The translations under genes were made by a program, and so were the position numbers. Below are positions 3,794 to 58,363 of a DNA stretch of 64,000 nt, piece by piece. Under the pieces are notes generated by a model, which saw nothing but the letters and a program-made list of their open reading frames with translations, had not been told where the DNA came from and made no database searches. The stretch is from a phage: sequence record PZ452579.1; one strand, written 5' to 3'. Within the stretch, counting starts at the first letter, position 1; each line of letters begins with the position of its first letter.

Positions 3794-4081
3794 CTAAAAG
3801 AAACTTTTTTCGGTATTTTTTCCACTGAACCAAACCGACTTCGGTATTTTCTGTAATTTTTCAGATTTAAGTTTCTCTTCCTGTTCTTTCTTATATACAC
3901 CCTTGTCGTACTGGAGCATCTCTATGGCATTCTTTTGCAAACGATCTAAGGTAATTAAGGCTTTAGTTTTTCCTTTCAAGGAAGAGTCCTGGCGAACCTC
4001 CTCGCTATATTGCATCGTAGAACTAACCATACGATGAGCATAGAGTTCGACTGCGGCTTTAATTTTTTGCATAAAATCCAT
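3794..4081 (-). CDS. hypothetical protein
   Basis: 95-aa ORF; overlaps alternative-frame ORF 3976..4182, so the true frame is uncertain. Confidence 0.35.
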   Translation of the reverse strand: MDFMQKIKAAVELYAHRMVSSTMQYSEEVRQDSSLKGKTKALITLDRLQKNAIEMLQYDKGVYKKEQEEKLKSEKLQKIPKSVWFSGKNTEKSFF

Positions 4082-4219
4082 AACATATCCTCTTTGATTT
4101 GTACATCATTATTTTTAAATATTTCTATGCCCTCAGTAGGTTCCTGGTGTCCTTCTTTGAGGTAAGCCATATGATTATTCATCTTTATGGCTTTTGTTAC
4201 CTCAGAACTTCCTATAAGC

Positions 4220-4342
4220 TTATTTCAGTAAAGTAACTTCCGAGATTTCTTCCCAACCATCTTTATCAGTTGAAATAAAATCTGCTACATAAAGAGCCGT
4301 ACGTAATGATACATTGCGAAGACGAGATACGTTAGCCTTCAT
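4220..4342 (-). CDS. small hypothetical protein (about 40 aa), start overlaps stop of the ATPase gene (ATGA)
   Basis: ATG overlapping TGA stop of 4339..5190; MKANVSRLRNVSLRTALYVADFISTDKDGWEEISEVTLLK; below ORF-track length cut-off. Confidence 0.25.
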   Translation of the reverse strand: MKANVSRLRNVSLRTALYVADFISTDKDGWEEISEVTLLK

Positions 4343-5190
4343 CCAGGACAATGCTTTATACGTTTCTGCATCATGTCAGTAGATAATATTACATCTTCAA
4401 CTCGAACCATAATCTCTTCATTAGAGTGTACTCCAAGGTCCAAATACACTGAACGAGATACTAAAGCTTGAAGGTGGGGAGCAAGTTTCGAACCGCGTTC
4501 TAACTCTTTATCGATATCAACGTTTGTAATGAAAACAATAGTACCTTCAAACTCAAATTCTTTATCAATACCCTTATCATCGAGATAAGATGACGCAGTG
4601 CTCCAACAAACTTTGCGTTTATCTCCGGTATCTAATGCTGCTTTAAGAAGGTTCAAGATGTCCATATCTGAGAATACGTCAACGTCGTCGATTAAGAGAA
4701 CGCTGTCTGCATCACGGTTGAGCCAAAGTTGTTCGTAAAGGCCAATACCAGAGATTTTACCATTAATACTTTTGTATTTGATGAAACCATTATCATTAGC
4801 ATTATTAAGTGCTTTATCCAGAGAATACGTCTTACCAATACCGGCTGCACCTGAAATAATGAGTGAACGAATTTTGCCATCGATAATACCATTCGTCATC
4901 ATGTTCATTACTTTAAAGCGTTTGTTGATACGAGTTTTCATATCTTCAGTGCTTTCAACAACTGCAACTGGTGATGTCTCAACTCCTTCCATTACGATGT
5001 CTGATTTGAAGACCCATACTCCACGTTCAGAACCATCAATCATAACGAAAATTTTACCGTCACCTAAGTGGGAACATTCAGGATTAAGCTTTGCCGGGAA
5101 CCATGTCTTTGTGGCAACATAAGAACCAGAGATTTCGTTATTACGATAGATACCTTTTTTGATTTGAACGTTGAACATTTTATTCTCCAA
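4339..5190 (-). CDS. P-loop NTPase (AAA-like ATPase) with N-terminal extra domain
   Basis: 283-aa ORF; Walker A GAAGIGKT and Walker B-like LLIDDVD. Confidence 0.6.
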   Translation of the reverse strand: MENKMFNVQIKKGIYRNNEISGSYVATKTWFPAKLNPECSHLGDGKIFVMIDGSERGVWVFKSDIVMEGVETSPVAVVESTEDMKTRINKRFKVMNMMTNGIIDGKIRSLIISGAAGIGKTYSLDKALNNANDNGFIKYKSINGKISGIGLYEQLWLNRDADSVLLIDDVDVFSDMDILNLLKAALDTGDKRKVCWSTASSYLDDKGIDKEFEFEGTIVFITNVDIDKELERGSKLAPHLQALVSRSVYLDLGVHSNEEIMVRVEDVILSTDMMQKRIKHCPG

Positions 5191-8325: not shown

Positions 8326-8354
8326 AAAAAAGCCCCAACCTTTCGGAAGGGGCT
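8326..8354 (-). terminator. intrinsic terminator (minus strand)
   Basis: AGCCCCTTCCGAAAGGTTGGGGC hairpin plus U-tract on minus strand, right after the stop of 8359..8916. Confidence 0.6.
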
Positions 8355-8358
8355 TTGA

Positions 8359-8916
8359 TTAGTTTTTGTAATATCGTAAAGGGTTGATATGGAATGAAAG
8401 CATTGCGCGTGGAATAGGACGACTCAAAAGACTCTTAAGTTTCCAACCACAGTAAACACGCAGATAAAATGTAATACCACCAACCTTAAGATAAGGTATA
8501 GCAGCGAATAATCCCCATGCAGACTCGTTCCAAACTAAAAGATATCCATGATGTGCCGGATCAGGAGATCCAGATTTAGTTTCGGCGTTGCCTTTATAGT
8601 GCCATTCTGATGAAGCTTCGCGACCTAAAACATGATACGAAAAATTATATGCTTTGTTGCGCCATAGCCAAGCTACGCGTTGAGCATATTTACCTATAAC
8701 AGGAATTTTACGTATTTTAGACCAACGTTCAACATGGCCGTGGTCACCATCGATAGGATTATCGTAAGTCATCATCCAGTCAAAGCCATAAGGTAGTTTA
8801 CCGGTTTTTTCACTATGGAATGGAACTACAAATGGTGCTAGAATAATTGCTAAAATCGCTGCGATCCAATCTATAGGAACAAGAACAACCCAACTTATGT
8901 ATTTTAAAAATTTCAT
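8359..8916 (-). CDS. hypothetical membrane-anchored protein
   Basis: 185-aa ORF with N-terminal hydrophobic segment; flanked by terminator hairpins. Confidence 0.5.
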   Translation of the reverse strand: MKFLKYISWVVLVPIDWIAAILAIILAPFVVPFHSEKTGKLPYGFDWMMTYDNPIDGDHGHVERWSKIRKIPVIGKYAQRVAWLWRNKAYNFSYHVLGREASSEWHYKGNAETKSGSPDPAHHGYLLVWNESAWGLFAAIPYLKVGGITFYLRVYCGWKLKSLLSRPIPRAMLSFHINPLRYYKN

Positions 8917-8949: not shown

Positions 8950-8976
8950 AAAAAGCCCCAACCTTTCGGAAGGGGC
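8950..8976 (-). terminator. intrinsic terminator (minus strand), identical copy
   Basis: Same hairpin plus U-tract after the rI stop. Confidence 0.6.
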
Positions 8977-13082: not shown

Positions 13083-13444
13083 TATAGACTCTCAGTAAAG
13101 GTACGAGCGATAACGTCGCGCTGCTGTTCTGGAGTCAGAGAGTTAAAGCGAACTGCATAACCGGATACACGGATGGTCAGCTGCGGATATTTTTCCGGAT
13201 GCTTAACTGCATCTTCCAGAGTTTCACGACGCAGAACGTTAACGTTCAGATGTTGACCACCTTCAATTTTAACTTTAGGTTGATGTTCAATTTCAATTTC
13301 ACGGGCATTCAAACCGTAGAAAATTTCCGGGTCTACAATAGCGTCTTCTTTAAAAGTCTTAGAGACAATAATCCGGGCTTGAGTGCCGTCTTCAAAATAA
13401 ATAGTGCCTTTATGTGCACCTTCAAGAATTTGATATGCTTTCAT
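13082..13444 (-). CDS. autonomous glycyl-radical cofactor (GrcA/YfiD-like) protein
   Basis: 120-aa ORF; C-terminus ...[60 protein letters not shown] carries the glycyl-radical RVSGYAV motif. Confidence 0.85.
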
Positions 13445-13450
13445 ATAACC

Positions 13451-13648
13451 TCAATTAGAAAATAAATTTATCCAAGTTTTTTCTTTAATCAAAAATGGGT
13501 CGGAATTAAACGCCATTAAACTTTGAGTGATTAATCCCTTAAATGGCCCATCAATAAATTCCATTTTGAAATGCGGAATACTAGTCATCAACCGTGCATT
13601 AGGAGCAGTACAAAGAACTTGCTGCCCTGCGAACGGACCTTTAGTCAA
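13451..13648 (-). CDS. hypothetical protein
   Basis: 65-aa ORF. Confidence 0.35.
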   Translation of the reverse strand: MTKGPFAGQQVLCTAPNARLMTSIPHFKMEFIDGPFKGLITQSLMAFNSDPFLIKEKTWINLFSN

Positions 13649-13755
13649 ACGATATCGTTTAGGTTTAAAATGGTAAATCTCATAATTTTCTACAAGGGCC
13701 CTTTTATTGCATACTGGGCTGTTATATCAATACTCAAAAACTTCAATAGTGGTCA

Positions 13756-14295
13756 TCATTGCATTCCAATCACAAAAAATTGAGGACGAGCATTACCGCC
13801 GATGCAATATTTGCTTTTGCAGCAGTGCTGTAATGTTTTAATGTGGACGTTGTAAATCTTATCCATATCAGGAGCTTTAATAGGCTCGTCAATTATATAC
13901 AGAATACGAGAAAGCGTTAATCCACGGAATTTAGAACCTTCATTGCCAATAAAACTACGAACAGAATCAGTAAATAAACGGAATCGAATATCATCGCTAG
14001 AATAACGAGAAAATTCTTTTTCAATGTTGCCAGCAGAAATTTTAGCATAAGCTGAAGTATTAGAAAGAACAATAACTGTTCCGCCATCATACAACCAATT
14101 AGCAGCAAAGTTAGTCACAGCAATTGATTTACCGGATTGACGTCCACCGTCTAAACGAAGTGTACAGTACTGTTTGAGTACGTCTTCAAACGGTGGGATA
14201 TAACCATTCTTACAAATTTCTTCTACTCTAGCATCAGAATGGTGTGTAAAAGCATTCATCAGGGATAGATAAGGACCAGTTAAAAATGTTCTCAT
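13756..14295 (-). CDS. hypothetical protein with Walker-A-like motif
   Basis: 179-aa ORF; DGGRQSGKS motif; weak promoter-like GTTTAC upstream. Confidence 0.5.
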   Translation of the reverse strand: MRTFLTGPYLSLMNAFTHHSDARVEEICKNGYIPPFEDVLKQYCTLRLDGGRQSGKSIAVTNFAANWLYDGGTVIVLSNTSAYAKISAGNIEKEFSRYSSDDIRFRLFTDSVRSFIGNEGSKFRGLTLSRILYIIDEPIKAPDMDKIYNVHIKTLQHCCKSKYCIGGNARPQFFVIGMQ

Positions 14296-14468: not shown

Positions 14469-14798
14469 TTATACTCTAGGCTTTTGAGCTTGTTTGGTAT
14501 TGGATTCCCATGCGGCTTTGGTAATTTTGTTAGCGGCATAACCAAAGGCATTAGATAGAACACCTTTAGAGTTGAATACATCCAATCCAATAAGTACACC
14601 GGCTGTGTTAAATTTAGGAGCAAAGTACGCATTAGTTTTAGAAAGAGCTTTTTTCAATTCAGGGTCTTGAACCAAGCCATCAAAAACGCCTTTACTATTT
14701 ACTTTATATGTTACTTTGGGATTTTTACCTTCTTCGATAGCAGCTTTCTGTTCCGCAGATAATGTAACTTCAGTGATAAACTCTTGATACGTTTTCAT
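14469..14798 (-). CDS. internal-protein-like capsid-targeted protein
   Basis: 109-aa ORF beginning MKTYQEFITE (capsid-targeting sequence, predicted prohead-protease cut after Glu10). Confidence 0.75.
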   Translation of the reverse strand: MKTYQEFITEVTLSAEQKAAIEEGKNPKVTYKVNSKGVFDGLVQDPELKKALSKTNAYFAPKFNTAGVLIGLDVFNSKGVLSNAFGYAANKITKAAWESNTKQAQKPRV

Positions 14799-14823
14799 TT
14801 TGTTCCTATTGTTTTAATTTATG

Positions 14824-15138
14824 TTATTCTTTAGGGAAGTTTTTAGAGTATGCGTCATAAAGTTTATTACCGATGCGACGGAAGACTTTAGCTGCAAAAC
14901 GGTTTTCAGGGTTTTTAATCATGATTTGCATCATGTAAGTTCCTGCATCCGAAAGAGCTTCTTCGTAGTACCCATTAATTTCTTTAAGAGTCCTACGTTT
15001 ACCACCAGGACCATCAACAGTAATTTTCCATTTACCTGTAGAAGTGCGGCTCGGTGGCTCAACTTGTTCAATCCAAATATAACCACCTTCAACGCGTTGG
15101 TTGGCGGATTCTGCAATAAATTCTTTATATGTTTTCAT
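14824..15138 (-). CDS. internal-protein-like capsid-targeted protein
   Basis: 104-aa ORF beginning MKTYKEFIAE; promoter element upstream (15156-15199). Confidence 0.75.
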   Translation of the reverse strand: MKTYKEFIAESANQRVEGGYIWIEQVEPPSRTSTGKWKITVDGPGGKRRTLKEINGYYEEALSDAGTYMMQIMIKNPENRFAAKVFRRIGNKLYDAYSKNFPKE

Positions 15139-15155
15139 TTTTTGTTTCCTTGTTT

Positions 15156-15199
15156 GTTTTGATAGAGTAATTATACCATATTAATACTTAAGCGTAAAC
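15156..15199 (-). promoter_or_regulatory. early-type promoter element upstream of an ip-like gene
   Basis: GTTTAC-N17-GTATAAT then TACTCTATCAA. Confidence 0.5.
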
Positions 15200-15202
15200 A
15201 AT

Positions 15203-15463
15203 TTAAGCTTTACCGCCAGAAATAATTCCGAAGTTGTTAAAATCGTATCCAATATCGTCAACATCTACTTTAGGACTTACTACAACATAAGCAATTTCAC
15301 TACGTTTTGCATAGGTGTTGATTTCTTTACCATCGCCACCTAAGAAAGAATACCCATTACGTTTTAATGAGCCAAAGTCTTCCGCATCACCAATGAAAGC
15401 TTTAACTTTAAATTTGGGGTCTTTGGCATCTGCTTCAGCTATAAATTCTTGATACATTTTCAT
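15203..15463 (-). CDS. internal-protein-like capsid-targeted protein
   Basis: 86-aa ORF beginning MKMYQEFIAE. Confidence 0.7.
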   Translation of the reverse strand: MKMYQEFIAEADAKDPKFKVKAFIGDAEDFGSLKRNGYSFLGGDGKEINTYAKRSEIAYVVVSPKVDVDDIGYDFNNFGIISGGKA

Positions 15464-15469
15464 TTTTCC

Positions 15470-15883
15470 TTAGTAAATTGATTTACCATAGTATTTGTAC
15501 CAAGTCGGACGTTGAGCAATTTTTTCATCTAAGCGTGCTTGACTTATCGCAATGGACGCTTCGGACGGGACGTAATTATTACGAAATTCTACAGGGATGT
15601 CGGAAATATCCTGGACAGTCGTGTCCTTGATTTTGAAACCACGTTTCAAACATTCGGCGATTAGCTCGATTTGTCGTAAACGTAAAAATTCAAGTTTGTC
15701 GTAAAAGAATGTTACGTGACCTGTGCCTAAGATAAATGTTGGAGAGATTTTAAAATCCTTTACACGTTTACCGTTTTGAACATGTTTACGGACTGCACCA
15801 AATACGCGTGGTAATTCACGATACTCAGCCATAAGATGTTGGTCGGTCAGTTCAGAAACAAGTGTTAAATTGATACGGGTCAT
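15470..15883 (-). CDS. denV: endonuclease V (pyrimidine-dimer DNA glycosylase)
   Basis: [31 protein letters not shown]... closely matches T4 DenV; ATG at 15883 with GGAGG RBS (track ORF begins at upstream TTG). Confidence 0.9.
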
Positions 15884-15910
15884 AATTTCCTCCAAGTAGT
15901 TGATGAATGT

Positions 15911-15940
15911 ATAGTATCAAAACCCTTGGAGGAAGTAAAC
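15911..15940 (-). promoter_or_regulatory. early-type promoter element upstream of denV
   Basis: GTTTAC-N18-TACTAT; GGAGG RBS then denV ATG. Confidence 0.5.
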
Positions 15941-15941
15941 A

Positions 15942-16238
15942 CTATTTTTCTGAAGCGCCTGAAATATATTTTTCAAGTCGTTGCTTCATTAGCGAGCCGT
16001 TCTTAGCGATTTCTTCCGGTTTATCGCACATACGTAACAAGGCTTCAAGCTTAGCGATATCGCTGGTACGTTCAAATTTGCGAGTATCTATCTTACTAGC
16101 AAGTTCAGAAATACGTGCTAATAGACTTTCGGCTTCAACCAAAGCTGCACCTAGCTTAGTTGCAAATGTGTCAGTAGCTTCGTTAAGAATAGATTCTGAT
16201 AAAAATTCACTATATGTTTTCATATATACGCTTTCCAA
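15942..16238 (-). CDS. internal-protein-like capsid-targeted protein (ipII/ipIII position)
   Basis: 98-aa ORF beginning [10 protein letters not shown]; immediately downstream of gene e. Confidence 0.7.
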
Positions 16239-23663: not shown

Positions 23664-23693
23664 AATATCTCAATCATAAGCCCATGTACGCGT

Positions 23694-23969
23694 TTATTTC
23701 ATATTATCGAAATATTCTTCAGCGATTTCGTCATTATCATGGTAAACTTTAGAAGACAGTTTAACATAACCTTCTGCGGTGAACATATTAATCACAACCT
23801 TTATAGTATACCACTGTCCGTCTTCATTACCCATTACTGCGTAAGTTTCAAACATCGGATGGTCAGGTCCAATAACTTTAATATCATTCACCGTACGACC
23901 AAAATCTTCTGGAACGCATTTCATAAAGAAGTTGAACAGTTCACCGTAATTATCCATTTCATTCTCCAA
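23694..23969 (-). CDS. hypothetical protein
   Basis: 91-aa ORF; promoter element upstream. Confidence 0.45.
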   Translation of the reverse strand: MENEMDNYGELFNFFMKCVPEDFGRTVNDIKVIGPDHPMFETYAVMGNEDGQWYTIKVVINMFTAEGYVKLSSKVYHDNDEIAEEYFDNMK

Positions 23970-23984
23970 GTTTTTTCTGTATCG

Positions 23985-24027
23985 GTAGTTGATAGTTGTA
24001 TAGTACCACGGAAGAACAGGGATGTAA
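23985..24027 (-). promoter_or_regulatory. early-type promoter element
   Basis: GTTTAC-N-TACTAT. Confidence 0.45.
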
Positions 24028-24159
24028 ACAGTTTTGTGAAAAAATTTTTAAAAAGTTTTGGGGAATTCTAGGGCAGGGAGAGGAAATTAAAAGGTAGGAT
24101 AATATATTATAAAGGGTTAAACTAAATGATGCCTAGAGAGGCCCGGAAAGGCCTAGATA

Positions 24160-24188
24160 CCAAAAAGCCCTATCATTTAGATAGGGAT
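24160..24188 (-). terminator. intrinsic terminator after the 187-aa ip-like gene
   Basis: Hairpin CCCTATC-TAAATGA-TAGGG followed by CTTTTT on minus strand; A-run on plus side. Confidence 0.55.
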
Positions 24189-24194
24189 TTAAAA

Positions 24195-24758
24195 TTATTT
24201 ACCTAGTTTAGTTATTATAGCTTCGGCAGCAGCTTTTAGCTTAGATGCAGTGTTAATACGATTTTTAATTTCAGTATACGCATCGCCAAGAACATCAAGG
24301 CTATCAGAATAAACACTTACACTATTGCGTTCGCTATTTGAAATAGAACCTTTAGTTTTACGATCAAAATCAGTGTACACGTCTTGAAGATCACGGGCTG
24401 CCTTCTTTGCATCATCCAATGCATCAAGAGCTTTATTCAAAGCATTGACATATTTTTTAGTGTCAAACATATTCTTAGAAATTTTAACAGGTGCACGTTC
24501 AGGAGTAGCTAAGGCGGATTTAGGAACCTGCGTGCCAGATGCCAGTTTCTTAGAAATTTTGAAAAACGCTTTATTGAAACTATTTTCTTGTCTCATCGTA
24601 AAAGAACTAGTATCGATGTTATACATTTCAATAGCTTTAGCTTTCCACTTAAGAAAATCGCCGCGGTCTTTTGGATCCAAGTGGAAGAATACTTTAGTAA
24701 GATCTGCTTCAGATGGTAATTTTGCTGCTTCGGTTAAAAATTCGGCATAGGTTTTCAT
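24195..24758 (-). CDS. internal-protein-like capsid-targeted protein (IPIII-sized)
   Basis: 187-aa ORF beginning MKTYAEFLTE; terminator hairpin downstream. Confidence 0.7.
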   Translation of the reverse strand: MKTYAEFLTEAAKLPSEADLTKVFFHLDPKDRGDFLKWKAKAIEMYNIDTSSFTMRQENSFNKAFFKISKKLASGTQVPKSALATPERAPVKISKNMFDTKKYVNALNKALDALDDAKKAARDLQDVYTDFDRKTKGSISNSERNSVSVYSDSLDVLGDAYTEIKNRINTASKLKAAAEAIITKLGK

Positions 24759-24848
24759 TTAAAATCCTTGAAATAATTTATCGGTTGGTTATTAATTATT
24801 TATTACTTTGTTATTATCAGTAACAGCATTCTCTGAGTGATTCAAACT

Positions 24849-24876
24849 AAAAAGCCCCAACCTTTCGGAAGGGGCT
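24849..24876 (-). terminator. intrinsic terminator (minus strand), identical copy, closing the tRNA/RNA region
   Basis: Same hairpin plus U-tract on minus strand. Confidence 0.65.
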
Positions 24877-25187
24877 AAGCCTTGCGGCAACCTTGTCGGG
24901 GTTCCACCTGCTAAGGCAAGTGTTTGTACGAAACGCCGGGATTCGAACCCGGTTATTAAGTAGTTGACGCTACTCAATATTTTTAAAAGGCCATATCTCG
25001 ACCATATCCGAACGTTCCGTCAAAAACGCTACTCGGCTTACGGCAAAGATATTTCCTCGAATCGATAATTCTGTGCGCCGTTTCTGCTGTGATGTAATGG
25101 GATATTAACAAATCGTAAAGATTTATTAAGACCAGTCCTTACTCAGGGAACATCAGTCCGACGACTTACCGGTAGCGACCCGGCTTC
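24877..25187 (-). ncRNA. structured non-coding region with tRNA-like 3' domain (candidate small stable RNA or degenerate tRNA)
   Basis: About 310 nt without convincing ORF between a CDS stop and a terminator; contains T-arm-like CCGGG-TTCGAAT-CCCGG (about 24936-24952) plus possible acceptor pairing, but no canonical D/anticodon arms found by hand. Confidence 0.3.
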
Positions 25188-25532
25188 TTATTTTGACATA
25201 TCATCAATTTGCTCTCGACGCCGACGCCATAGATTAATCGCTTCATTAACACATTCGGCGTTTGGTATATGACGGCAATAATATAATGATTCACGTTTCT
25301 GGAACCGATGTTGCAATGGTATTTCGTTTAAAAGGTCTTTACGGTCAAAGTATTCAAAACTAGTTAACCCAGAACGGTTTTTAATGAACTTCCAATGTCC
25401 AAATTCATTTTGAACATAGATGTAATCGGCATGCTGATACAGCGAATTAATCAATCGATGAGAAATAACTGTGTCATATTCGTTAAAATAAAACGTTAAA
25501 TCATGAACTACCAGATAAATATTGCCTTTCAT
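25188..25532 (-). CDS. hypothetical protein
   Basis: Track ORF 25188..25580 starts at a TTG inside tRNA-Arg; ATG at 25530-25532 with GTGAGGA RBS gives 114 aa (MKGNIYLVVHD...). Confidence 0.5.
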   Translation of the reverse strand: MKGNIYLVVHDLTFYFNEYDTVISHRLINSLYQHADYIYVQNEFGHWKFIKNRSGLTSFEYFDRKDLLNEIPLQHRFQKRESLYYCRHIPNAECVNEAINLWRRRREQIDDMSK

Positions 25533-25550: not shown

Positions 25551-25627
<77 letters not shown>

Positions 25628-25633
25628 AATATA

Positions 25634-25707
25634 TGACCCAGACCAGATTCGAACTGGTAACCTTTCCCTTATGAGGGGACTGCTGCTAACCATTGAGCTA
25701 CAGGGCC
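25634..25707 (-). tRNA. tRNA with anticodon CAU (Ile2/Met type), no encoded CCA
   Basis: Hand-folded: acceptor GGCCCTG/CTGGGTC (one U-U mismatch), anticodon loop CUCAUAA, T-arm ACCAG-TTCGAAT-CTGGT; 6 nt upstream of tRNA-Arg. Confidence 0.65.
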
Positions 25708-27211: not shown

Positions 27212-27487
27212 TTATTTCAAATATATTGCGTATTTTTTATAGCCACCAGGCTCGTGTCGAAGACCTTTATCATTCGCAAAACGTTGAATGTTATTGAACT
27301 GATTTTCATCAAGTTCGGATGTGTCAAATATAAAAAAGTTTCGTTTGTTACCAAGCGTGATATGCGGAGTTAAGTCAATGTTATACAAATTAAGAATATC
27401 AGCAATAACCTGATTGACTGCTTTGTTAATTTTCACACCAGACGATTCTGAGATGAATTCGTTGAAAGTTTTCATTTTAGGTTCCAT
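27212..27487 (-). CDS. internal-protein-like capsid-targeted protein
   Basis: 91-aa ORF beginning MKTFNEFISE; promoter element upstream. Confidence 0.7.
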   Translation of the reverse strand: MEPKMKTFNEFISESSGVKINKAVNQVIADILNLYNIDLTPHITLGNKRNFFIFDTSELDENQFNNIQRFANDKGLRHEPGGYKKYAIYLK

Positions 27488-27536: not shown

Positions 27537-27848
27537 CTATTTTATGCCTTTAGATGAAATAGTATTCTGGCGTTTGACCCCAGTTTGTGAAAAATCATGG
27601 TTATCAATTTGGTCAACTCGCATAACACCAAACGCAGATTTAATTTTGGCCTTTGAACCTTTTTTGATACTAATTACCATATAAGTATCATTTTTCTTAT
27701 ATTCGAAATTTGATACTTCAACGCCTTGATTAGAAATTGACTTAATAATAGCATTAGCGTATTCATCATCTAACGGGCCGTTAGTGTTAATAACAAAATT
27801 TTTATCCGCTTTAGTAGCTTCCGCGATGAATTCTTGATAGGTTTTCAT
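27537..27848 (-). CDS. ipI: internal protein I-like capsid-targeted protein
   Basis: 103-aa ORF beginning MKTYQEFIAE; adjacent to 57B as ipI in T4. Confidence 0.75.
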   Translation of the reverse strand: MKTYQEFIAEATKADKNFVINTNGPLDDEYANAIIKSISNQGVEVSNFEYKKNDTYMVISIKKGSKAKIKSAFGVMRVDQIDNHDFSQTGVKRQNTISSKGIK

Positions 27849-54642: not shown

Positions 54643-56214
54643 ATGAAATTTAATATCTTAAGTTTGTTTGCTCCATGGGCAAAAATGGACGAACGTGATT
54701 ACAAAGACCAAGAAAAAGAAAATTTAGAATCGATCACCTCACCAAAATTAGACGACGGCGCTAAAGAATACGAAGTATCTGAAAATGAAGCACAGCAAAC
54801 ATATAATGCTATGTTTCAGAGAATGTTCGGTAGCCAAGAACCAGGGCTCAAATCAACGCGTGAATTAATCGATACGTATCGAAATTTGATGACGAACTAT
54901 GAAGTGGATAATGCAGTCTCTGAAATAGTTTCCGATGCTATCGTATATGAAGATGATACAGAAGTCGTTTCTATAAATTTAGACAACACAAAATTTAGTC
55001 CAAATATCAAATCAATGATGTTGGATGAATTTAACGAAGTGTTAAATCATTTATCTTTCCAACGTAAAGGTTCAGATCATTTTAGACGTTGGTATGTGGA
55101 TTCTCGAATTTTCTTCCATAAAATTATTGACCCTAAACGCCCTAAAGAAGGTATTAAAGAGCTTCGTCGTTTAGACCCACGTCAAGTTCAATATGTCCGT
55201 GAAGTTATTACAACCACTGAAGCCGGTGTTAAAATAGTCAAGGGTTATAAAGAATATTTCATTTATGACACATCACACGAATCTTATGCTTGTGATGGTC
55301 GCATATATGAAGCTGGCACAAAAATAAAAATCCCTAAAGCCGCGATTGTTTATGCCCATTCTGGTTTAGTTGATTGTTGTGGTAAAAATATCATTGGTTA
55401 TTTGCATCGGGCTATTAAGCCGGCGAACCAATTAAAACTTCTTGAAGATGCCGTCGTAATTTATCGTATTACTCGTGCTCCTGATCGTCGTGTATGGTAC
55501 GTTGATACAGGTAATATGCCTTCAAGAAAAGCAGCAGAACATATGCAACATGTTATGAATACGATGAAAAACCGTATTGCATATGATGCTACTACAGGCA
55601 AGATTAAAAACCAGCAGCATATTATGTCGATGACCGAAGATTATTGGTTACAGCGACGTGATGGTAAAGCAGTAACAGAAGTTGACACATTACCAGGTGC
55701 AGATAATACTGGAAATATGGAAGATGTACGTTGGTTCCGTAATGCGCTTTATATGGCTTTACGTATTCCTATTACCCGTATTCCAAGTGACCAAGGTGGT
55801 ATACAGTTTGATGCTGGTACTTCTATTACACGAGATGAATTGTCATTTGGTAAATTTATTCGTGAGCTGCAACATAAATTTGAAGAGATATTCCTAGACC
55901 CGCTTAAAACTAATTTAATTCTTAAAGGAATTATTACAGAAGATGAGTGGAATGATGAAATAAATAATATTAAGATAAAATTTCATCGGGATAGTTATTT
56001 CTCGGAATTAAAGGATGCTGAGATTCTGGAGCGTCGCATTAATATGCTTCAGATGGCCGAACCATTTATTGGTAAATATATTTCTCACAGAACAGCTATG
56101 AAAGATATTCTTCAGATGTCTGATGAGGAAATTGAACAAGAGGCTAAGCAAATTGAAGAAGAGTCGAAAGAGGCTCGTTTCCAAGACCCCGACCAAGAAC
56201 AAGAGGATTTTTAA
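54643..56214 (+). CDS. 20: portal vertex protein gp20
   Basis: 523-aa [23 protein letters not shown]... Confidence 0.97.
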
Positions 56215-56451
56215 ATGGACGATTTAATTCAAGCTATTAAATCAAACGACCTCGTTGCTACTCGAAAGTTTTTTGAAAGTGCAATGGCAGAAAAAACGGT
56301 TCGTTTGATTGAAGCACGCAAAGCAGAAATCGCTTCTCAATTTTTGATTGAAGGCGAAGAACCTGAAGAAGAAAAGAAAGCTAAAGCTTCGGAAGACGAC
56401 GCTGATGAAGGCGATGACGACGAAGACGAAGATGATGAGGACGATGAATAA
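56215..56451 (+). CDS. 67: prohead core protein gp67
   Basis: 78-aa ORF with poly-acidic C-terminus ([18 protein letters not shown]). Confidence 0.9.
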
Positions 56452-56876
56452 TGTATCTTATCCCTGAATCTTATGAATTGGTACTCGAAAATGTCGAAGC
56501 ACTTATTCCTGAAGCACAGGGCCGAATCGATGCATTGTCTTCTGCTCTCGATATTGACGATATAAATACTATTATCGAGAACATGCTTGAAACTGAAACG
56601 GATTTAGCTGTTGCAATGGCTTCCATTATTAATGAAGAACAGTTAAATGAGTTTATCGTTAAACATGTTTCTTCTCGTGGTGAAGTCACCCGCACTAAAG
56701 ACCGTAAAACTCGTGAACGTAACGCGTTCCAAACCACTGGTCTTTCTAAAGCAAAACGTAGACAAATCGCTCGTAAGGTCGTTAAAGCTAAAAAAGCTAA
56801 CCCTTCAGGCCAAGTTAAAGGCTTGCGTAAGCGTAAAAAGGCTCTTAAACGTCGTAAAGCATTAGGATTAAGCTAA
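56451..56876 (+). CDS. 68: prohead core protein gp68
   Basis: 141-aa ORF with basic C-terminus; T4 order. Confidence 0.9.
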
Positions 56877-57517
56877 TGAATAAACCCGAGTTACTTATTG
56901 AAACTTGGGGTCAACCCGGTGAGATTATTGATGGCGTTCCAATGTTGGAATCTCATGATGGAAAAGATTCTGGCTTAAAACCAGGGCTTTATATAGAAGG
57001 TATTTTTCTTCAGGCAGAGGTTGTTAACCGAAATAAACGTTTATATCCTAAACGCGTTTTGGAAAAAGCAGTAAGTGACTATATTAAAGAACAAGTCGCA
57101 ACCAAACAAGCCCTTGGAGAATTAAACCATCCACCTCGCGCAAATGTTGACCCTATGCAAGCCGCTATCATTATTGAAGATATGTGGTGGAAAGGAAACG
57201 ATGTATATGGGCGCGCTAGAATTATTGAAGGCGACCATGGTCCCGGCGATAAATTAGCTGCTAATATACGAGCTGGTTGGATTCCAGGTGTTTCCTCTCG
57301 TGGTCTTGGTTCTTTAACCGACACCAATAAAGGGTACCGTATCGTGAACGAAGGATTTAAATTAACCGTCGGCGTAGATGCCGTATGGGGACCTTCTGCT
57401 CCAGATGCTTGGGTTACTCCTAAACAAATATCAGAATCAGAAAATTCGGTGGAAATCACCAAAAACAGTGCTGACGAAGCATTTAAAGCTCTCGCAGAGA
57501 GTTTAAAAGCATTATAA
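56876..57517 (+). CDS. 21: prohead core protease gp21
   Basis: 213-aa [19 protein letters not shown]... Confidence 0.95.
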   Translation: MNKPELLIETWGQPGEIIDGVPMLESHDGKDSGLKPGLYIEGIFLQAEVVNRNKRLYPKRVLEKAVSDYIKEQVATKQALGELNHPPRANVDPMQAAIIIEDMWWKGNDVYGRARIIEGDHGPGDKLAANIRAGWIPGVSSRGLGSLTDTNKGYRIVNEGFKLTVGVDAVWGPSAPDAWVTPKQISESENSVEITKNSADEAFKALAESLKAL

Positions 57518-57550
57518 ATAATAATGTAATCTAAACCACAGGACACTAAA

Positions 57551-58363
57551 ATGATCAAAGAACAACTTTTGAAAGAAGCTCAGAATATCGAGACTTCAGT
57601 TGCTCTTAATAGTGTTTTCGAATCAGTAGAACTGTCTCCGGACGTTAAAGCTAATTTCAGCACTGTATTCGAAGCCACCGTTAAGCAGGAAGCAGTCAAA
57701 CTGGCTGAATCTCATATCAAAGCCATCGCCGAAAAAGCCGAAGAAGAAGTTGAAAAGGCTAAAGAAGATGCTGAAGAGAAAGCTGATAAAAAATTGGCTG
57801 AACAAGCTTCTAAATTCCTGGACCATCTTGCAAAAGAATGGCTCGCAGAAAACCAAATCGCAGTTGATAAAGGCATTAAAGCTGATTTGTTCGAATCCAT
57901 GCTTGGTGGTCTGAAAGAACTGTTTGTTGAACATAACGTTGTTGTTCCAGAAGAATCTGTAGATGTTGTAGCAGAAATGGAAGAAGAGCTGGCCGAACAT
58001 AAAGAAGAAACCGCTCGTTTGTTCGAAGAAGTTACCAAACGTGATGCATATATCAATTACGTTCAGCGTGAAACCGCTATTAATGAAAGCGTGAAAGACC
58101 TGACTGAATCTCAGAAAGAAAAAGTTATTGACCTGGTTGAAGGTATGGATTATTCTGACGCATTTGGTACTAAGTTAACTGCTATTGTAGAAATGGTTAA
58201 AGGTTCTACTAAAGAAGAAGCCGCTATTACCGAAAGTATAAATACAGTTGACAATGACGCTGCCGGTCTTAATTTTGTTGCCGAAGCAGTTGACACTACC
58301 ACAACTCAGGTAGAACAGAATTCTAATGTAAGTTTATATGCGAAAGTCGCATCTCGTTTCTAA
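57551..58363 (+). CDS. 22: prohead core scaffold protein gp22
   Basis: 270-aa acidic alpha-helical ORF MIKEQLLKEAQNIE... Confidence 0.95.
   Translation: MIKEQLLKEAQNIETSVALNSVFESVELSPDVKANFSTVFEATVKQEAVKLAESHIKAIAEKAEEEVEKAKEDAEEKADKKLAEQASKFLDHLAKEWLAENQIAVDKGIKADLFESMLGGLKELFVEHNVVVPEESVDVVAEMEEELAEHKEETARLFEEVTKRDAYINYVQRETAINESVKDLTESQKEKVIDLVEGMDYSDAFGTKLTAIVEMVKGSTKEEAAITESINTVDNDAAGLNFVAEAVDTTTTQVEQNSNVSLYAKVASRF
58237..58244 (+). promoter_or_regulatory. candidate late promoter inside gene 22
   Basis: TATAAATA 144 nt upstream of the gene 23 ATG, within the gene 22 coding region. Confidence 0.4.

Follow-up and report, generated by a model that had tools for sequence, protein, structure and literature searches.

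The internal proteins of T-even phages have been described as diverse defence proteins with only a capsid targeting sequence (CTS) in common (Rao and Black, PMC3012670), and the ip genes of T4 as lying in "two distinct loci" (PMC12373910). What, then, is a gene whose product starts like an internal protein doing between rnaC and e.8, just beyond the tRNA cluster? The present study suggests that this gene probably encodes a CTS-targeted, gp21-processed internal head protein, one of a family of its own whose conserved site would be a third ip locus. The sequence studied, called the window below, is a 64,000-nt stretch of phage record PZ452579.1. The phage is RB69-like (Mosigvirus), its DNA being 97% identical to that of RB69 across 12 kb. 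Scanning the ORFs of the window with the pattern MK[TS][YF]..F[IVLM].E returned six CTS-pattern ORFs, all on the minus strand. The gene, its surroundings and the other five ORFs are as follows.

24195..24758, minus strand: coding sequence of the 187-aa protein, from the ORF list, starting MKTYAEFLTEAAKLP
24765..24769, minus strand: Shine-Dalgarno-like AAGGA, 6 nt 5′ of the ATG, read from the sequence
24927-25065, minus strand: rnaC homolog, 99.3% identical to T4 rnaC (BLAST)
25073-25191, minus strand: rnaD homolog, 86.7% identical to T4 rnaD (BLAST)
25551-25707, minus strand: tRNA-Arg and tRNA-Met
14469-14798, 14824-15138 and 15942-16223, minus strand: e/denV-proximal CTS ORFs, from the pattern scan
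27212-27475 and 27537-27848, minus strand: ipI/57B-proximal CTS ORFs, from the pattern scan

Read along the minus strand, 57B comes first, followed by two ip genes, tRNA.4/.3/.2, ORF151c, tRNA-Met, tRNA-Arg, an ORF150c homolog, rnaD, rnaC, the 187-aa gene, e.8 and further genes down to e. A first-pass annotation of the window had described an ORF of 187 aa starting MKTYAEFLTE in the tRNA-flanking region, about 8 kb from the e-proximal ip genes, similar to T4 IPIII in size and different from it in location. Our analysis bears out each of these points: tRNA-Arg and tRNA-Met lie nearby, the e/denV group is found at 14469-16223, the lengths are 187 and 193 aa, and the gene stands between rnaC and e.8, on the minus strand, which that annotation did not state. 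Its description of the gene as isolated is not supported; the two ipI/57B-proximal CTS ORFs, which it left unmentioned, are just ~2.5-3 kb upstream.

By tblastn, the 187-aa protein is present in 164 phage records at 95-99.5% identity and in one more at 85%; the records inspected include Tequatrovirus (RB14, PYps5T) and Mosigvirus (RB69). Compared with the RB14 and PYps5T orthologs, the gene shows 15-17 synonymous and 4-8 non-synonymous differences, and its dN/dS is 0.06-0.11. Judged by these substitutions, the ORF is a real gene under purifying selection. Overlapping plus-strand ORFs (e.g., 24445-24750) were rejected, since orthologs differ overwhelmingly by changes that are synonymous when read in the minus-strand frame. 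In all records listed or inspected, the gene is annotated as "hypothetical protein" or equivalent. A literature search under ORF149c, ncORF136c, Shfl2p135 or Ip4/Ip5 gave nothing usable, and older work may have assigned it an Ip number.

In the RB69 reference, the gene is broken up into RB69ORF149c and ORF148c by the loss of 1 nt (GTGATC to GTG-TC):

13438-14000 of the examined NC_004928 locus: frameshifted RB69 copy, counterpart of window positions 24195-24758

This deletion may be a real mutation of the laboratory strain or a sequencing error of the 2003 record. If real, the frameshift implies that the phage can do without the gene, at least under laboratory conditions.

The case for packaging begins at the N-terminus, where the first 10 residues resemble the propeptide of T4 IPIII and the enzyme for its removal is encoded in the same window.

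24729..24758, minus strand: predicted CTS propeptide MKTYAEFLTE, codons 1-10, from its likeness to IPIII and published determinants
56876..57517, plus strand: gp21 prohead core serine protease (Pfam Peptidase_S77, E 2.9e-107)

Over its first 10 residues, the protein matches T4 IPIII, MKTYQEFIAE, at eight (8/12 in the BLASTP alignment). The first 10 residues of IPIII suffice for packaging; targeting hinges mainly on residues 4 and 7 and processing on residues 8 and 10, and gp21 cuts after the Glu of L/I-X-E (PMC9026906). The 187-aa protein has Tyr4 and Phe7 at the targeting positions, both as in IPIII, and Leu8 and Glu10 at the processing positions. Its capsid-targeted nature, proposed in the first-pass annotation, is thereby supported at the level of sequence. 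The only [LI]xE motif of the protein is L8-T9-E10, followed by Ala, and a single gp21 cleavage is therefore predicted. The precursor (20.9 kDa, pI 9.45) would yield a mature protein of 177 aa and 19.7 kDa with a pI of 9.56, which begins AAKLPSE and whose predicted semi-tryptic N-terminal peptide is AAKLPSEADLTK. This pI resembles those of T4 IPII (9.56) and IPIII (9.65). The gp21 gene has portal gp20, core gp67 and gp68, scaffold gp22 and capsid gp23 and gp24 as neighbors (Pfam on window positions 54643-58363: Peptidase_S77, T4_CASP, GP67, Portal_T4; Gp23 also on a neighboring ORF), and its product is expected to be the enzyme that removes the CTS. Pfam returned no match for any of the five other CTS-bearing ORFs (87-109 aa).

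With the same CTS, a close length and a comparably basic pI, one could suppose the protein to be the IPIII ortholog of this phage, moved to the tRNA region. At the level of sequence, we rule this ortholog out and give the idea next to no probability. BLASTP likeness to T4 IPIII is confined to residues 1-12, all other segments having E > 3; the gene lies at rnaC-e.8 and not at e-denV; profile and structure searches never bring up IPIII, all their matches being members of the protein's own family; and that family is found at this very locus in at least five genera. Thus, our reading is that of a separate family which would share with IPIII the delivery signal. The protein remains similar to T4 IPII and IPIII in its CTS, its L/I-x-E gp21 site at residues 8-10, its small size and basic charge (pI ~9.6) and its non-essential, variably present gene, and to IPIII also in length (193 aa). 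It differs from them in locus and in the lack of any detectable similarity past residue 12.

Beyond the CTS (residues 1-10), the predicted layout comprises a helical N-domain (~17-73), a Pro/Ala/Lys-containing linker (~76-99) and a helical-hairpin C-domain (100-186). AlphaFold did poorly from the sequence alone (pLDDT 61.7), so an AlphaFold2 model based on a 36-sequence alignment was used instead; its mean pLDDT is 78.9, with block means of 88-96 across residues 101-180. The protein matches PHROG 2280, to which no function is assigned, almost from end to end (E 4.8e-53, residues 1-181 against 1-178 of the 178-position profile). Beyond it, the PHROGs search gave weak matches to Ip proteins, over the CTS only. 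Pfam yielded sub-threshold helical-bundle noise, with cytochrome b562 on top (18.9 bits, cut-off 30). The PADLOC defence library left the protein unmatched, the PDB sequence-profile search gave no meaningful match, and Foldseek found nothing under E = 1 in the PDB. In BFVD, all Foldseek matches belonged to the protein's own uncharacterised family, among them a member from Yersinia phage fHe-Yen9-01. Specifically, no homology or fold shared with Ip proteins emerged from the protein searches, the PDB profile search, or Foldseek against PDB or BFVD.

How far does this family extend, and does it always begin in the same way? An exhaustive HMMER search recovered one remote relative of 31% identity, and further homologs were found using that relative, and then a profile, as query. 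They include Dhakavirus JS98 orf135, Karamvirus KMB19 and Pet-CM3-4, Marfavirus Marfa gp137, Kosakonia phage 305, EcS1 and others, and the distant ones are only 17-27% identical overall to the 187-aa protein (20-30% for those of Dhakavirus, Karamvirus and Marfavirus). All of them have a CTS-like start, e.g., MKTYNEFLNE, MLNFKEFIAE, MLKFKDILTE and MITFNEFLNE, and the proposed family layout runs from this CTS through a helical N-domain and a Pro/Ala/Lys linker to a helical C-domain that varies. Of 33 full-length members, 31 have F/Y at position 4 and all have F/I/L at position 7; L/I is found at position 8 in 30 of them and E at position 10 in 31. As the CTS has been retained despite such deep divergence, we consider this the strongest indirect sign that it functions.

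The same retention bears on another reading, that the protein is made late and stays in the cytoplasm, unpackaged, its CTS-like N-terminus being a recombination scar common to ip genes. The 5′ ends and regulatory elements of ip genes are indeed repeats open to shuffling, and among the literature on T4-like and Mosigvirus virion proteomes we found none covering the protein (the fPS-65 paper comes without proteomics). However, an N-terminus kept at ~20% overall identity argues for selection. [quoted passage not shown] We therefore regard an unpackaged protein as quite improbable. That the protein is packaged and processed as an internal protein is, on these sequence features, likely.

The location is as constant as the N-terminus. 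In every lineage inspected, the gene lies directly downstream of the tRNA cluster, with one intervening gene (orf136) in JS98; these lineages are RB14 (Tequatrovirus), RB69 (Mosigvirus), JS98 (Dhakavirus), KMB19 (Karamvirus) and Marfa (Marfavirus), and a Karamvirus-like metagenomic contig also has a tRNA-adjacent family gene. In RB14, RB69 and JS98, an annotated e.8 follows it. Thus, the relocation that had been suggested for this gene finds no support, as synteny identifies the tRNA-downstream site as the normal home of the family in the five genera compared. In a Karamvirus-like subgroup (~174-kb contigs), the CTS, N-domain and linker are kept and followed by an unrelated C-terminal domain (VPGMKV...GLSYTI); such a gene stands at the same tRNA-adjacent locus, at positions 4001-4627 of the locus examined. 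Going by these sequences, the delivery module has stayed constant in this subgroup and the domain behind it has been swapped.

The immediate surroundings of the gene are as follows.

24160..24186, minus strand: intrinsic terminator of the 187-aa gene, CCCTATC-TAAAT-GATAGGG followed by CTTTTTGG (terminator scan; hairpin 24186..24168)
24797..24804, minus strand: late-promoter-like box AATAAATA, the T4 TATAAATA with A for T at -13, 38 nt upstream of the ATG
24849..24876, minus strand: rnaC terminator, AGCCCC-TTCCGAAAGGTT-GGGGCT followed by TTTTT, matching T4 spacer nt 1-81
24187..24845, minus strand: ~660-bp cassette (late box, gene and terminator), present in RB14 and RB69, absent from T4

A terminator of its own had been claimed for the gene, and the terminator scan did find a hairpin and T-run after the stop codon on the minus strand; this terminator is identical in RB69 and RB14. 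In T4, e.8 and rnaC are separated by 284 nt. Spacer nt 1-81 align to window positions 24926-24846 and nt 54-284 to positions 24186-23958, so that the two pieces overlap at the terminator tail GGGCTTTTTGG. A survey with the T4 rnaC-e.8 junction as query showed that the site is contiguous and empty in T4, Sf24, ELT1, BF15 and others. The span is ~1090 bp in RB14, Shfl2 and RB69. A ~960-bp span holds AR1_137 (RB32ORF132c type), which encodes 157 aa, and a ~1640-bp span, inspected in PYps5T, has the 157-aa and 187-aa genes in tandem:

785-1258 of the examined AR1 locus and 787-1260 of the examined PYps5T locus: 157-aa CTS gene
1386-1949 of the examined PYps5T locus: 187-aa gene, in tandem with the 157-aa gene

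KK4, UTI-E2 and CCU7 also appear to carry both genes. Overall, the 187-aa cassette is found in 165 records and the 157-aa cassette in 512, and the 157-aa gene was not found in the window. The 157-aa protein, given no name other than hypothetical in the records listed or inspected, begins MKSYAQFLNE|AVLNE (the bar marking the predicted cut) and hence bears a CTS; its gene is preceded by the canonical TATAAATA, and on either side of the AR1_137 cassette stands the rnaC terminator, directly repeated over 35 nt without a mismatch. It is remotely homologous to the linker and C-domain of the 187-aa protein (hhalign probability 94%, E 1.4e-7). The two types share the rnaC-e.8 site, the CTS, a late-promoter-like box and the bounding terminators, but the 157-aa protein has a different N-domain, is 30 residues shorter and is more widespread. 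With an empty site in T4, Sf24 and ELT1 and one or two cassettes elsewhere, the 187-aa gene has accessory status. On this comparison of sequences, the rnaC-e.8 interval is a polymorphic ip locus, and such presence/absence polymorphism is typical of ip genes. At least three C-domain or paralog types are seen at the site: the 187-aa, the 157-aa and the Karamvirus-like VPGMKV...GLSYTI type.

When would the gene be expressed? Of the 50 T4 late promoters listed in PMC2988020, 9 have the A(-13) variant of the late box. At the equivalent upstream position, JS98 and KMB19 have TATAAATA, Marfa CATAAATA and RB14 GATAAATA; ATAAATA is invariant among the 187-aa gene and these four homologs. The 8-mer AATAAATA, itself a one-off variant, has 12 copies in the window, both strands together, so that this copy taken alone could be due to chance. 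A sigma-70-like promoter was not found upstream of the gene on the same strand. The gene differs in this respect from other ip genes of the window: sigma-70 early-type promoters (GTTTAC...TAnnAT), and not TATAAATA, precede the ORFs at 14824-15138, 27212-27475 and 27537-27848, whereas the 187-aa gene has a late-type box. The ORF at 14469-14798 has just CATAAAT near its start codon, and no obvious promoter was seen for the one at 15942-16223. The rnaC terminator separates the gene from tRNA/rnaC transcription and, as read from the sequence, is the upstream boundary of the cassette. Late-only expression is thus plausible.

The block that surrounds the gene has its own history. Over 1.5 kb, from rnaD through rnaC and the gene to e.8 (23685-25189), the DNA is 94.7% identical to that of Tequatrovirus RB14, as against 69-74% for the flanking genes. 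This suggests either a recent lateral exchange between Mosigvirus and Tequatrovirus at the same locus, or an unusually strong constraint centred on rnaC. The proposal of an independent acquisition thus stands in part: the contrast between block and flanks suggests an exchange, but the locus is unchanged between the genera. The near-identity of rnaC between genera far exceeds that of neighboring genes, and a tRNA-like T-arm sequence, GGGTTCGAATCCCGG, is present at its end; Rfam has no family for rnaC or rnaD. Between tRNA-Arg and rnaD, at 25191-25532 on the minus strand, lies a homolog of RB69ORF150c/AR1_139 (66% identical to AR1_139). A TTG start at 25580 would overlap tRNA-Arg, so a start at 25532 (MKGNIYLVV...) is likelier for it. 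In T4, tRNA-Arg and rnaD are contiguous, without an insert of this type.

The window contains three copies of the terminator motif CCGAAAGGTTGGGGCTTTTT, where 0.03 would be expected, and two of them bracket another gene.

8327-8346, 8950-8969 and 24849-24868, all minus strand: copies of CCGAAAGGTTGGGGCTTTTT
8359-8916, minus strand: DUF7338 membrane-protein gene, 185 aa, bracketed by two CCGAAAGGTTGGGGCTTTTT copies and preceded by TATAAATA

The JS98 homolog of this gene (orf136) is found at the tRNA locus, where it has this terminator and TATAAATA on either side. These repeats suggest that modules of terminator and late promoter may serve as recombination joints of cassettes, which would be shuffled through them. 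Mobile regulatory cassettes of T4-type phages, in which repeats of promoter and stem-loop flank shuffled genes, were reportedly described by Arbiol, Comeau, Krisch and co-workers in 2010. The gene cassettes here are likewise bounded by repeated regulatory sequences, but the repeats consist of a terminator and a late promoter instead of an early promoter.

Taken in sequence, the gene, enclosed by two terminators, would have a gp55-type promoter to itself and be transcribed late. The 10-residue CTS would recruit the 187-aa precursor into the prohead scaffolding core, where gp21 would cleave after Glu10 (L-T-E|A). The basic 177-aa mature protein would stay with the DNA in the head and then be injected with the genome into the next host. 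There, by analogy with Ip1, Ip2 and Ip3, it would most likely act as a pre-made counter-defence factor, for which a modification-dependent (type IV, GmrSD-like) restriction system would be the likeliest type of target.

The analogy rests on the internal proteins of T4: each of Ip1, Ip2 and Ip3 inhibits its own member of the GmrSD type IV restriction enzymes, as was already known for Ip1 and was shown for Ip2 and Ip3 in 2025 (PMC12373910). For the 187-aa protein, the homology searches pointed to no particular target. With T4 IPI* (ipI, tRNA.4-57B), an inhibitor of GmrS/GmrD, the 187-aa protein would share membership of the CTS-bearing class, which is injected together with the DNA (PMC3012670), and the ipI locus, too, adjoins the tRNA region, from the opposite side. 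The two differ in other respects. The propeptide of IPI is longer and divergent (MKTFKEFTSTTTPVSTITEA), and IPI has a compact alpha/beta fold (PMC3012670), whereas our protein is predicted to be all-helical with two domains; neither the PDB profile search nor Foldseek against the PDB gave a sequence or fold match between them. On this analogy, the chances of an anti-defence role of any kind appear evenly balanced, and the more specific role of a type IV restriction inhibitor is doubtful. Furthermore, 95-99% identity across two genera is less typical of a fast-evolving arms-race effector.

That high conservation, together with the basic charge and the Pro/Ala/Lys linkers, would also suit the main rival explanation, in which the protein is packaged but works within the virion, neutralising or organising DNA charge or helping in core assembly or genome ejection. 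However, T4 and many relatives lack the gene, and it is frameshifted in the RB69 reference, which argues against a general structural need. The linker of the 187-aa protein is short (~24 residues), and all three characterised T4 Ips are specific inhibitors of defence (PMC12373910). A virion-internal role is, therefore, unlikely, though clearly less so than an unpackaged protein. Returning to injected proteins, one could go further and propose that the rnaC-e.8 locus, assembled from cassettes of terminator and late promoter, houses a modular superfamily, with a CTS, a conserved N-domain, a Pro/Ala/Lys linker and an exchangeable "effector" C-domain, that counters defences other than the GmrSD enzymes targeted by Ip1-3; we put this forward only tentatively, as a possibility well short of even.

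The family was previously unannotated, and on sequence comparison its site is probably a third, cassette-like ip locus across Tevenvirinae, empty in T4. This third locus appears to have gone unrecognised so far, and the family was probably overlooked because the T4 site is empty and the RB69 gene is frameshifted. In the light of the Ip2 and Ip3 results, each further CTS-bearing protein becomes a ready candidate for an injected anti-defence factor, and the 187-aa gene is valuable as a candidate anti-defence gene. Genes of the 187-aa family and of its 157-aa paralog are found across hundreds of sequenced T-even phages, many of which were isolated as therapeutic candidates. Naming the locus would thus improve the annotation of hundreds of genomes and would provide a small, defined target for work on host range.
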